DNA of 64,000 nucleotides from Escherichia coli. GTDB lineage: Bacteria; Pseudomonadota; Gammaproteobacteria; Enterobacterales; Enterobacteriaceae. Below, in pieces: positions 27,321 to 47,066 of the stretch. Numbering within the stretch: position 1 is the first letter of the stretch; each line of letters opens with the position of its first letter. A program made the translations under genes and the position numbers. The DNA is taken from the NCBI RefSeq assembly GCF_022846255.1, contig NZ_AP025682.1, one strand, 5' to 3'. The notes beneath the pieces are model-generated. The model saw nothing but the letters and a program-made list of their open reading frames with translations, did no database searches and was not told the origin of the DNA.

Positions 27321-27829
27321 TCACTTATTTTATTTACTTAGCGCAATGTCGTTCACTTAAGCAGAGCGGCATTGCTGCTAACTGGATAACGGTTTTTTGA
27401 TATCTTCACCTCCCTCGGCCTTGATGATCGGGGGCTATGAGCAGCACTTCCAAATTTCCACGCAGATGCCCCAACCTCTTCGGACTTGTTCCTGTCGAAT
27501 CGGTATTCCCCAGTACTATCAGCGCTGTTGCGATGAACTCAAAGGTAAAATCAGAGCTTATTTCCTGGGGGACAATCTCTTATGTTTCTCTGCTGCTTGA
27601 TTGCATATTCTTACGATCAGGTAGCAAGATGTGACCGCGAGGCTCAGCATTTCAGGCAGTATTGTACCTACTTAGCAGAAAAATGTTCGGCAAAAGGTTG
27701 CGCTGAAGGAGATGGCATTAATAAGATCACAGAAATCGAGCAAATCATTAAGTAGTGCATAAGAAAACGTCCCCCTGTTATGGAAGTCGTCATAGCGCTG
27801 CAAATTAAGGAGCGGCATTGGTTATTACC

Positions 27830-28034
27830 GCATTTTTTATTGCGCACCATATATCAACAATAAGAATGAATTAACTAATATTAATTTGTTTTATTTATAT
27901 TTATACGGAAAATAAATAAACGTTATTCATATATAAATGATATGTCAGAAATTTAATTTAATATTTACTAGCACTTTATGCAGATTTTAAATAAAATCCA
28001 ATTTAATTTAGTTTAAATCAGGGATGGTTTTTAT
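27830..28034 (+). promoter_or_regulatory. Strongly AT-rich upstream region of the first sinH-like gene (probable promoter / nucleoid-protein binding region)
   Basis: About 200 bp of almost pure A/T with phased A and T tracts (ttttattgcgcaccatatatcaacaataagaatgaattaactaatattaatttgttttatttatatttatacgg...) directly 5' of the ATG at 28035. Confidence 0.4.
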
Positions 28035-30230
28035 ATGCTGCGTTGGTCTCCAGTGCTTTTTTCTATTATGTGGGCAAGTGCTTCATGGGCATCAGAAGGA
28101 AAAGTAGAACCAATAAATATCAGTTCTACTAATAGTGCTAATACACTTCCTGATTTAGGTAGTAACGAAAAATCAAACAACAAAGATGAAAAAAGTGCTT
28201 TAGTCGATAAAGCTCAGGGTTATTTTATAAATTCCGCAACGCAAGGTTTTGAAAATCTCACGCCCGAGGACCTGAAGGCTCAGGCTGAAAGCTATGCGAA
28301 AGGGCAGGTGACGTCCACCGCTCAGTCTTATCTTGAGAATGTCTTGTCGCCTTATGGTTCTGTCAGAACCAGCTTATCAGTTGGTGAGGGGGGCGACTTA
28401 GACGGCAGCTCCTTTGACTACTTTGTCCCCTGGTATGATAACCAGGAAACTCTCGTTTTCAGCCAGTTCTCGGCACAACGTAAAGACGACCGAACCATTG
28501 GTAACATTGGGGTTGGCGTACGCCAGAACATTGGTAACTGGTTGCTTGGCGGCAACCTGTTTTATGACTATGACTTTACTCGCGGTCATCGCCGTTTGGG
28601 ACTGGGTAGCGAAGCCTGGACCGATTACCTGAAATTTTCCGGCAACTATTACCATCCGCTTTCTGACTGGAAAGATTCAAAAGACTTCGATTTTTACGAA
28701 GAACGACCAGCGCGTGGCTGGGATGTCAGAGCTGAAGGTTGGCTACCTGCATGGCCACAACTCGGCGCAAAACTTGTCTATGAACAATATTATGGCGATG
28801 AAGTCGCACTTTTTGGTACCGACAATCTGGAAAAAGATCCTCAGGCGTTAACTGTTGGACTGATGTATAACCCTGTTCCGCTATTTACCGTAGGTTCAGA
28901 TTATACATCTGGTACGGGTGATAATGATGATTTAAGTGTCAATGTATCCCTGAACTATCAGATAGGTACGCCACTGAAGGAGCAATTAGATCCTGATAAT
29001 GTCAAAGCCCGGCATTCTTTAATGGGAAGCCGCCACGACTTCGTTGAACGTAATAACTTCATTGTGCTGGAGTATCGCGAAAAAGATCCGCTTGATGTGA
29101 CGCTGTGGCTGAAAGCCGATACCACGAATGAACATCCGGAATGTATTGTGAAAGACACACCAGAGCTGGCCGTGGGTCTGGAAAAATGTAAGTGGACGAT
29201 TAATGCTCTTATTAATAACCACTACAAAATTGTCGCAGCTTCATGGCAGGCGAAGAATAATGCTAACCGCACGTTAGTCATGCCCGTTGTGAAGGCAAAT
29301 GCTCTGACCGAAGGAAATAATAATCGCTGGAATATGGTGTTACCGGCGTGGCAAAGCGCATCCACGAAAGAAGAACAAGAGAAGCTGAATACCTGGCGTG
29401 TACGCCTTGCGCTGGAAGATGAGAAAGGTAACCGTCAAAACTCTGGCGTTGTCGAAATTGTGGTGAAACAGGATCGTAAAATCGAACTGATTGTTAACCA
29501 TATCCTCAGTGTTCCTGTGGAAAATAATCACAACTATCAAGCGGAAGCAAAAGCCGATGGCAGTGATGGTGTTGTTATGGATATGCACATTACTGACAGC
29601 TTTGGTGATAACACTGACAAAAACGGTAATACCCTGCCAGAAACAGGTGTGACGCCTGTACTGTACGACGAGAATGACAAAAAAGTGACGCTTAATACCA
29701 AACCTTGTGCTACTGAAACGCCGTGCGTCTTTATTGCTAAACGCGATAAAGAAAAGGGCACCATTACCTTATCCAGTACGCTGCCGGGGACTTTCCGCTG
29801 GAAAGTGAAAGCAGAGCCGTATAGCGACTCAAACTTTATAGACGTGACTTTTACCAACAGTGCAAATATTGGCGGCATTAATGGTTTTATCTATCGCCTT
29901 GAAGACAGTAGTCCGAAAAATCTCGCAGGTGATGAAAAGCCGATTCCTCTGAAATCAGGTTACCGTTTCGTGATGTGGCGTGATGCTAATAACGATGGCA
30001 TTTATCAGCAGTCGGAAAAACTGACTGAAGAGGAAAAAGCACGTTACGACTATGAGTGGGAATTCACCGGGAAAAGTGCACACGGTGCCACTGGCGCTAA
30101 AGCGAATACGAAAAATGAAGATTTGATCTTGCCAGCCACTAACAGGGAAGCTGCATCGAAATTTGCTGCGGATGAACGTGATGGCGTGCAGGGGTATGGA
30201 ATTCGTGTGGTTTATAGCGAAAAACAATAA
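28035..30230 (+). CDS. Intimin/invasin-family inverse autotransporter, SinH-like (island module 1)
   Basis: 731 aa with signal peptide (MLRWSPVLFSIMWASASWA); the N-terminal half resembles an inverse-autotransporter beta-domain; paralogue of the 34201-36375 ORF (about three-quarters identical by eye along the whole length). Confidence 0.8.
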   Translation: MLRWSPVLFSIMWASASWASEGKVEPINISSTNSANTLPDLGSNEKSNNKDEKSALVDKAQGYFINSATQGFENLTPEDLKAQAESYAKGQVTSTAQSYLENVLSPYGSVRTSLSVGEGGDLDGSSFDYFVPWYDNQETLVFSQFSAQRKDDRTIGNIGVGVRQNIGNWLLGGNLFYDYDFTRGHRRLGLGSEAWTDYLKFSGNYYHPLSDWKDSKDFDFYEERPARGWDVRAEGWLPAWPQLGAKLVYEQYYGDEVALFGTDNLEKDPQALTVGLMYNPVPLFTVGSDYTSGTGDNDDLSVNVSLNYQIGTPLKEQLDPDNVKARHSLMGSRHDFVERNNFIVLEYREKDPLDVTLWLKADTTNEHPECIVKDTPELAVGLEKCKWTINALINNHYKIVAASWQAKNNANRTLVMPVVKANALTEGNNNRWNMVLPAWQSASTKEEQEKLNTWRVRLALEDEKGNRQNSGVVEIVVKQDRKIELIVNHILSVPVENNHNYQAEAKADGSDGVVMDMHITDSFGDNTDKNGNTLPETGVTPVLYDENDKKVTLNTKPCATETPCVFIAKRDKEKGTITLSSTLPGTFRWKVKAEPYSDSNFIDVTFTNSANIGGINGFIYRLEDSSPKNLAGDEKPIPLKSGYRFVMWRDANNDGIYQQSEKLTEEEKARYDYEWEFTGKSAHGATGAKANTKNEDLILPATNREAASKFAADERDGVQGYGIRVVYSEKQ

Positions 30231-45615: not shown

Positions 45616-45647
45616 CCTTATCCACCTTGTCAATATGAGGTTCTGAA

Positions 45648-47066
<1,419 letters not shown>

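Follow-up and report, generated by a model that had tools for sequence, protein, structure and literature searches.

Two diverged sinH-sinI-rat adhesin modules on either side of yfgJ in the der-xseA interval of an Escherichia coli chromosome

The stretch of Escherichia coli chromosome analyzed here (hereafter the window; 64,000 nucleotides of contig NZ_AP025682.1, RefSeq assembly GCF_022846255.1) carries two complete and strongly diverged versions of the sinH-sinI-rat adhesin locus between der and xseA. This interval (27321–45668, 18.3 kb) contains, according to the listing of open reading frames (ORFs), seven co-directional ORFs on the plus strand, of which the six large ones are intact and form two colinear modules: each has a gene for an inverse autotransporter (sinH), a gene for a SinI-family partner, and a gene for a Rat-type adhesin, and yfgJ separates the two. 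Here, module 1 or B-type refers to the genes on the der side of yfgJ and module 2 or A-type to those between yfgJ and xseA. A preliminary description of the sequence had proposed an adhesin island of about 18 kb at this site, built from two diverged modules around yfgJ, and both the ORF layout and the matches to hidden Markov models (HMMs) bear out that proposal. It was also correct in stating that K-12 has yfgJ alone between der and xseA. At the residue level the two SinH proteins are 71% identical, the SinI proteins 36%, and the Rat proteins about 35%, and by this measure the modules are old diverged copies and not the products of a recent duplication. The overall account developed below, in which each module is assigned to a known locus type, the two were brought together by a crossover, and SinH serves its co-encoded partners as a translocator, is one that we hold with moderate confidence.

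Products of the two modules

Both SinH proteins are predicted inverse autotransporters (type Ve). SinH-1 (731 residues, identical to WP_137501863.1; sinH-1, 28035–30230, plus strand) and SinH-2 (724 residues; sinH-2, 34201–36375, plus strand) score 1400 and 1474 bits, respectively, against the NCBIfam model NF033423 (cut-off 999 bits), over model positions 1–730 of 730. The Pfam domain IAT_beta was found at residues 68–341 of SinH-1 (E = 4.5e-108) and 62–336 of SinH-2 (E = 1.8e-107), and the SinH-2 barrel matches the PDB structures of invasin (4e1t, E = 3.3e-73) and intimin (4e1s, E = 6.6e-63). Judged by eye, the N terminus of both copies is signal-like, with MLRW ahead of a hydrophobic stretch and an A-x-A-like site, and in both about 390 residues C-terminal to the barrel make up the passenger, in the inverted topology. 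The preliminary description had anticipated IAT_beta as well as Big_1 domains in the island: IAT_beta is indeed present in both SinH proteins, whereas no Big_1 domain was detected in the island's proteins, and the Rat repeats consist of BIg21 and InvE_AD instead. The Pfam search returned no domain at all in either SinH passenger, and hence no Big_1, C-type lectin, or LysM domain; the SinH passenger has been described as unannotated in Pfam (Heinz et al. 2016, PMC4943183). A passenger of Big_1-type immunoglobulin (Ig) domains, such as those of intimin and invasin, is typical of type Ve proteins but not obligatory. The last ~100 residues of SinH match the SinI model, with E values of 8e-21 and 2.5e-23 in the two copies.

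The sinI genes start 57 nt (sinI-1) and 56 nt (sinI-2) past the stop codons of their sinH genes. SinI-1 (311 residues, or 326 from an alternative start at 30242; sinI-1, 30287–31222, plus strand) is identical to WP_137501865.1, and SinI-2 has 330 residues, or 332 from a start at 36425 (sinI-2, 36431–37423, plus strand). Both are members of the SinI family NF040711 (cut-off 165 bits), with scores of 286 bits for SinI-1 and 371 bits for SinI-2, and no Pfam domain was found in either by the Pfam search. SinI-1 also matches the ZirU family model (ZirU_fam, NF040485) at 38 bits (E = 1.8e-9), short of the cut-off of 100, such that it does not count as a family member, and SinI-2 has no match to this model. 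In an AlphaFold2 (AF2) model of SinI-1 (mean predicted local distance difference test score, pLDDT, of 74), two beta-rich domains are joined by a disordered Gly/Asp-rich linker.

The two Rat proteins differ greatly in length. The RatA-like giant adhesin of module 2 (2693 residues; 37534–45615, plus strand) scores 5431 bits against PRK15316, the RatA-like equivalog (cut-off 3870), over model positions 1–2683 of 2683. Its gene holds nine repeat copies spaced 804–861 nt apart, which correspond to nine protein repeats of about 270–287 residues, and Pfam identifies four BIg21-InvE_AD pairs plus the start of a fifth within the first 1199 residues. The short Rat-type adhesin of module 1 (772 residues, or 784 from an upstream ATG at 31296; 31332–33650, plus strand) has two pairs of BIg21 (PF05688) and InvE_AD (PF05689), with DNA repeat units at 32277 and 33192, and matches the putative invasin 5n40 in the PDB (E = 1.3e-25). 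Beyond its own cluster, the closest relative shares only 47% identity. Scores against the three Rat models PRK15316, PRK15315, and PRK15314 lie between 424 and 516 bits, far below their cut-offs of 3700–4079, and the best stretch covers only the N-terminal 300–380 model positions. The top NCBIfam match is the N terminus of the RatA-like model, the match to the RatB model being weaker than the other two. On this evidence the short protein is a two-repeat Rat-family adhesin, and the label RatB-like, under which it was initially described, is unsupported.

Sec signal peptides had previously been noted for four large products of the island. That count is too low, as all six N termini, read from the sequence by eye, resemble Sec signal peptides, with a hydrophobic core between a basic n-region and an AxA-like site. 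Each of the six genes is full length by comparison with the models and has pairwise ratios of nonsynonymous to synonymous substitution rates (dN/dS) of 0.05–0.38, which indicates that all six are maintained. Every gene of the interval already has a RefSeq name.

Distribution and origin of the double locus

A survey of 5426 complete RefSeq E. coli genomes revealed three states of the same interval. Besides the K-12 state (der-yfgJ-xseA), the A-type arrangement der-yfgJ-sinH-sinI-ratA-xseA occurs in 1749 genomes, or about 32% of complete E. coli; it is also the arrangement of E. coli MS 21-1 and of E. albertii. The B-type arrangement alone, der-sinH-sinI-short adhesin-yfgJ-xseA, is found in 8 complete records, including four assemblies of E2348/69 and strain A25, with an allele that differs from that of the window. 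The junction of module 1, yfgJ, and module 2 is absent from all 5426 complete genomes, even at blastn sensitivity, and none of them covers at least 80% of the interval. Given the rarity of the B-type, about 2.6 double genomes would be expected in this set under independence, and the count of zero is therefore by itself no evidence that the modules are incompatible. In a bacterial scan of one genome per species, which did not recover Salmonella, all 20 loci in the der/xseA context had a single module, of A-type. The view that the doubled state is unusual, already voiced in the preliminary description, is thus upheld. The order sinH-sinI-rat is kept in every retrieved locus that reaches past sinH, across at least six genera. 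In the literature searched, no description was found of either the B-type insertion between der and yfgJ, which is annotated in E2348/69, or the doubled arrangement, which is annotated in public records.

Related insertions were observed elsewhere among the retrieved loci (numbered L001–L035). Several from Citrobacter, Superficieibacter, and an Enterobacteriaceae metagenome-assembled genome (L020, L022, L023, L026, L027, and L033) carry 2–5 kb between der and yfgJ that is dissimilar to the SinH, SinI, and Rat queries, such that in several genera this spacer seems to serve as an insertion site. In Leminorella grimontii (L030, 22436–23215) and Citrobacter sp. R56 (L032), sinH-sinI-rat modules lie outside the der/xseA context, and in Leminorella a second rat gene begins directly after the first, as in Salmonella ratA-ratB.

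The double form is not confined to the window. At least 12 independent public assemblies share it, with module 1 paired among them with at least three alleles of module 2, and exact-protein look-ups detected the short Rat in more than 20 contigs. Module 2 follows yfgJ in all 10 of the loci with enough downstream sequence (L004, L006, and L008–L015), L006 extending only into the first 80 codons of sinH-2. Three loci (L005, L010, and L015) are 100% identical to the window. In the other double loci, module 1 is nearly identical to that of the window, with zero differences in the short rat, whereas module 2 differs: SinH-2 has 92% amino acid identity, and sinI-2 and ratA have about 74% nucleotide identity. 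Divergence begins at 34134, just 5' of sinH-2, or in L012 at 33896, within yfgJ. From the constancy of module 1 and the position of these breakpoints, in or beside yfgJ, it follows that one module-1 allele has been joined to at least three right-hand alleles.

Some of the double loci show decay. The sinH-2 gene is split (156 + 560 residues) in L009, L013, and L014, ratA is split into 285 + 2358 residues in L008, and sinI-1 and sinI-2 are each in two pieces in L011, which suggests that redundancy or cost drives decay in some lineages. Variation within module 1 has a pattern of its own. Among otherwise identical copies, nearly all differences cluster at 30739–31113, in the 3' half of sinI-1, and this could be due to local recombination or diversifying selection. 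A 5-nt indel at 31209–31213 in some strains alters the last sinI-1 codons and yields a 329-residue variant.

Comparisons of the modules and their flanks point to an origin by recombination. A neighbor-joining tree of 22 SinH sequences separates the module-1 type (SinH-1 of the window and the proteins of E2348/69 and A25) as a deep clade, and B-type SinH is 65–72% identical to all SinH from the yfgJ-xseA site of Escherichia, Pseudocitrobacter, Citrobacter, and Superficieibacter. Module 2 (34201–45615) is identified, by sequence and position, with the resident ila/CS54-type locus of the Enterobacteriaceae, and module 1 with an old paralogue or xenologue that occurs singly in a few E. coli such as E2348/69. 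The gene between them, yfgJ (33777–34001, plus strand), encodes a zinc-ribbon protein of 74 residues and is a mosaic: over its first 75 nt, identity is 77% with the B-type allele and 56% with the A-type. The DNA upstream of yfgJ is B-like, and that downstream is A-like. The right-flank gene xseA (45669–47036, minus strand) is an A-type-linked allele, with 95.3% identity to A-type MS 21-1, 92.7% to K-12, and, on the B-type side, only 82% to E2348/69 and A25, and the 5' region of guaB beside it is 97–99.8% identical to all strains compared. The B-type xseA is 77–82% identical to every Escherichia and Citrobacter xseA compared, and with so foreign-looking an xseA, the block sinH-sinI-rat-yfgJ-xseA of the B-only strains looks imported from an unsampled donor. 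As an aside, xseA is extremely polymorphic within E. coli, the E2348/69-type allele appearing as if from another genus.

Because yfgJ is a mosaic and xseA is A-like, we infer that a B-type and an A-type chromosome recombined by a homologous crossover within yfgJ or beside it, which would have joined the left part of the B-type block (module 1) to the A-type block (module 2 plus xseA), and that further exchanges would afterwards have replaced the module-2 allele. We regard this sequence of events as reasonably probable. Weighing against it, the mosaic pattern of yfgJ rests on alleles that are only ~70–77% identical to the window, such that the true parents are unsampled and the crossover would be old or indirect. 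Other sources for the modules were considered and rejected. Import of module 2 and xseA from E. albertii does not fit, as module 2 is 94.1% identical but the DNA from xseA to guaA only about 90%; nor does a recent inter-genus transfer with Pseudocitrobacter vendiensis, whose SinI is 96% identical at the amino acid level but whose DNA is just 86.5% identical, versus 81–87% in the flanks. A composite transposon mediated by an insertion sequence (IS) was likewise discarded for module 1, which has a single IS4 remnant, at its left edge only. The sole inverted repeat flanking the module (27929–27965 and 33990–34026) is 37 nt long, AT-rich, and 70% complementary, and is probably due to chance.

Other routes to the present arrangement can be set against the same observations. 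That the modules are colinear and that the sinH copies lie a constant 6151 nt apart would suit a scenario in which one sinH-sinI-ratA operon was recently duplicated in tandem, after which the copies diverged and one rat was truncated; yet the paralogues have the low identities given above, synonymous divergence among the module-1 type alleles alone reaches 0.36–2.6, E2348/69 and A25 carry module 1 by itself, at a different site between der and yfgJ, and B-type SinH is a separate deep clade, all of which make duplication very improbable. The preliminary description had called the arrangement doubled; the two modules are real, but in place of a duplication they represent two old paralogous insertions on opposite sides of yfgJ, each single elsewhere. 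It is conceivable that the double arrangement is instead ancestral and that the A-only, B-only, and empty (K-12) states arose by deletion, which would be easy between co-directional paralogous operons and would be in keeping with the decay in L008, L009, L011, L013, and L014. This we consider improbable, although less so than duplication: the 20 species representatives in the der/xseA context are A-only, the double form is known only with one nearly invariant module-1 allele, and the 5' end of A-type yfgJ, as well as the 3' end of B-type yfgJ and its xseA, differ sharply from the window in a way that plain deletion would not yield. Finally, an assembly artefact that merged alleles of two strains is scarcely credible. 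Nothing specific speaks for it beyond the question raised by a sinH similarity of 69–73% over stretches, whereas independent sequencing runs yielded L010 (DRR322657) and L015 (SRR19238557), which match the window at 100% identity for 22.3 kb and 16.4 kb, the other haplotype is present in seven more loci, and the proteins come from one 4.94-Mb chromosome record (locus-tag prefix TRECRb50) with consecutive GenBank entries BDH32454–BDH32460.

A model for export and surface display

Each module is a type Ve unit made up of a SinH outer-membrane beta-barrel with a C-terminal passenger, a small Sec-exported SinI, and a Sec-exported Rat composed of Ig-like and adhesion-domain repeats. The beta-barrel assembly machinery (BAM) would insert each SinH into the outer membrane, and SinH would then serve as translocator, surface anchor, or both for the co-encoded SinI and Rat, much as ZirT does for ZirS and ZirU. 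The C-terminal domain that SinI shares with SinH could mediate the link between SinH and its partner, and a motif of about 20 residues in the mature N termini of SinI and Rat could be a common recognition element. Carriage of both modules would equip a strain with two adhesin sets that differ antigenically, a short one (two repeats) and a long one (nine repeats). A role of SinH as translocator or anchor for SinI and Rat, which is drawn by analogy, has in our estimation slightly better than an even chance of being correct. Translocation of the co-encoded SinI and Rat by SinH-type inverse autotransporters, in the manner of ZirT, has been proposed before (Heinz et al. 2016, PMC4943183), and the same possibility was raised for IatB, the E. 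coli orthologue of SinH (Goh et al. 2019, PMC6714894).

The N-terminal motif, W-(Q)-x5-6-(S/T)-T-G-x-I-x-G-T-x-P, lies just after the signal peptide in both SinI and Rat (window 30380–30440, 31430–31490, 36520–36575, and 37625–37675, all on the plus strand) and was located in loci L001–L035 as well. An hhalign comparison of SinI with Rat gave E = 2.4e-5 over 24 columns. Motif likeness is greater within loci than between them (mean scores of 49.5 versus 38.1), and none of 20000 permutations reached the observed value. Variants of the motif ('EF' versus 'AI/TI', and presence or absence of a preceding L-K-x-G) co-vary in the SinI and Rat of one locus. The motif, for which no description was found in the literature searched, may be a shared recognition signal. 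A broader, full-domain homology of the SinI and Rat N-terminal regions, considered on the basis of a four-sequence alignment, was abandoned, as hhalign backs the first 24 columns only. It is enticing to speculate that the modules are orthogonal secretion or display systems, with the motif as an undescribed targeting signal that is read by the cognate SinH and whose locus-specific variants keep the substrates apart. Such a scheme would let one cell run two inverse-autotransporter two-partner systems in parallel, but we regard it as doubtful.

Several observations weigh against the translocator model. A Foldseek search of the SinI AF2 model against the PDB returned nothing at E ≤ 0.001, leaving an Ig-like fold unconfirmed, and the weak top matches were mostly Ig or fibronectin type III (FnIII) tandems. 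The hhalign probability of the motif is only 75.6%, with no significant homology beyond the 24 residues, and the permutation test ignores the shared ancestry of the loci. The SinH orthologue IatB promotes biofilm formation without the downstream gene (Goh et al. 2019, PMC6714894), and SinH is itself a surface-accessible, protective vaccine antigen (PMC9937491). On these grounds, SinH could be an ordinary adhesin that works by itself. In such a scenario, module identities and origin would be the same, SinH would show its own passenger, and SinI and Rat would be periplasmic or otherwise exported and merely co-regulated with it. We view this as a possible but less probable course: the order sinH-sinI-rat is strictly kept across genera and occurs twice in the window, Rat and SinI both lack a barrel yet carry signal peptides, the three proteins have domains and motifs in common, and ZirT with ZirS and ZirU offers a precedent. 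These same features are what favor SinH as translocator or anchor.

Surroundings, significance, and relation to known systems

The island is embedded in ordinary E. coli DNA. Its flanks are 98–99% identical to E. coli genomes, and der (25848–27320, plus strand), the conserved left flank, has 97–98% nucleotide identity to E. coli der and carries that name in the matching records. A first megablast search gave ~92.5% at the der and xseA edges, which hinted at an Escherichia other than E. coli; this reading was dropped in view of the flank identities, the low value being due to the polymorphic xseA. For the upstream 24 kb (1–24000), the best match among the complete E. coli genomes is only 98.4–98.8%, and the source lineage is therefore poorly represented in complete RefSeq genomes. 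The flanking core genome has ordinary Rfam matches to the iscRS stability element, ryfA, the IS128 small RNA, and sroE (window 1743–1852, 9108–9412, 9548–9724, and 22518–22609). Within the interval, a remnant of an IS4-family transposase gene (27329–27594, minus strand) lies at the left edge of module 1. It is assigned by homology only: window 27300–31636 aligns with the E2348/69 locus L002 at 13973–18348, where 14002–14267 is annotated as a frameshifted partial IS4 transposase. In E2348/69 and A25, as in the window, module 1 has this remnant at its left border, and in E2348/69 an extra 7.4-kb element, encoding a tyrosine recombinase, a pentapeptide-repeat protein, and a nucleotidyltransferase, lies between der and the remnant (L002 6748–13876).

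An AT-rich spacer (27595–28034, plus strand), read from its sequence as the presumed promoter region, precedes sinH-1. The window averages 51.4% G+C, whereas the whole der-sinH-1 spacer (27321–28034) has 37.5%, module 1 and sinH-2 have 45–49%, and the long rat has 55.5%. At the other end of module 1, a consensus scan identified a hairpin resembling an intrinsic terminator 3' of the short rat (33685–33712, plus strand), with a 12-bp stem that includes 7 G-C pairs and is followed by a T-run. With this hairpin between them, the two modules are probably separate operons, each its own transcription unit.

The locus bears on how adhesin repertoires assemble. It is a clear example of a chromosomal site at which homologous recombination shuffles diverged adhesin alleles, with two insertion points about 225 bp apart, one on either side of yfgJ, and with the housekeeping gene xseA carried along, at up to 18% divergence within one species. 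It also bears on antigen coverage, in that SinH is under development as a broad vaccine antigen against ExPEC (extraintestinal pathogenic E. coli), and strains such as the one analyzed here have a second SinH, 71% identical to the first, along with a second adhesin set. Two paralogous modules in one cell further offer a natural specificity test of whether SinH-type inverse autotransporters export the co-encoded SinI and Rat.

Among known systems, the SinH barrel is homologous to the intimin and invasin barrels, but SinH scores only 243–259 bits against the intimin model, far below its cut-off of 1400, and has a passenger unlike theirs. Closer in organization is the zirTSU locus of Salmonella, where ZirT exports the co-encoded Ig superfamily (IgSF) proteins ZirS and ZirU (Gal-Mor 2008 and Prehna 2012, as cited in PMC4943183). 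There, too, the genes next to that of the inverse autotransporter, on its downstream side, encode Sec-exported proteins that have no barrel and have domains in common with the passenger, and it is by this analogy that an export role might be assigned to SinH; zirTSU differs in having no Rat-type giant adhesin.

The Salmonella CS54 island, shdA-ratB-ratA-sinI-sinH between xseA and der/yfgK (Kingsley 2003, as cited in PMC3739510 and PMC4943183), occupies the same locus and has the same sinH-sinI-rat core as the window. The S. Typhimurium form adds a second rat and shdA to one sinH-sinI pair, whereas the window has the whole three-gene module twice. No shdA-like ORF and no further large ORFs are present in 27321–45668, and the two rat genes sit in separate modules and not in tandem. 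The five-gene S. Typhimurium form is thus not what the window carries; module 2 corresponds instead to the three-gene CS54/ila form (sinH-sinI-rat from yfgJ to xseA), which lacks shdA and ratB and has been reported for S. bongori, subspecies II, and E. coli. In E. coli this is the ila cluster, or the sinH-sinI-ratA island of ExPEC (Goh et al. 2019, PMC6714894, with IatB as SinH; Shea et al., as cited in PMC12928451; SinH vaccine work, PMC9937491). Module 2 lies at the same site, has the same three genes in the same order, and is 91–93% identical in nucleotide sequence to the closest E. coli alleles; the allele in the window is about 78% identical to the common allele of uropathogenic E. coli (UPEC), and the closest of all is that of E. 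albertii, at 94.1%. What sets the window apart from the ila cluster is the second, diverged module across yfgJ.

That second module has its counterpart in the enteropathogenic E. coli (EPEC) strain E2348/69 and in A25, whose der-sinH-sinI-short adhesin-yfgJ-xseA arrangement agrees with module 1 in position, gene order, IS4 remnant, and two-repeat adhesin. Identity to the E2348/69-type proteins is 94% for SinH, 85% for SinI, and only 47% for the short Rat, and E2348/69 differs further in having no module 2 and a very divergent xseA (82% identity). The double locus is accordingly a rare, locus-level variant of a known system, its parts belonging to known families and their combination being explicable by recombination.

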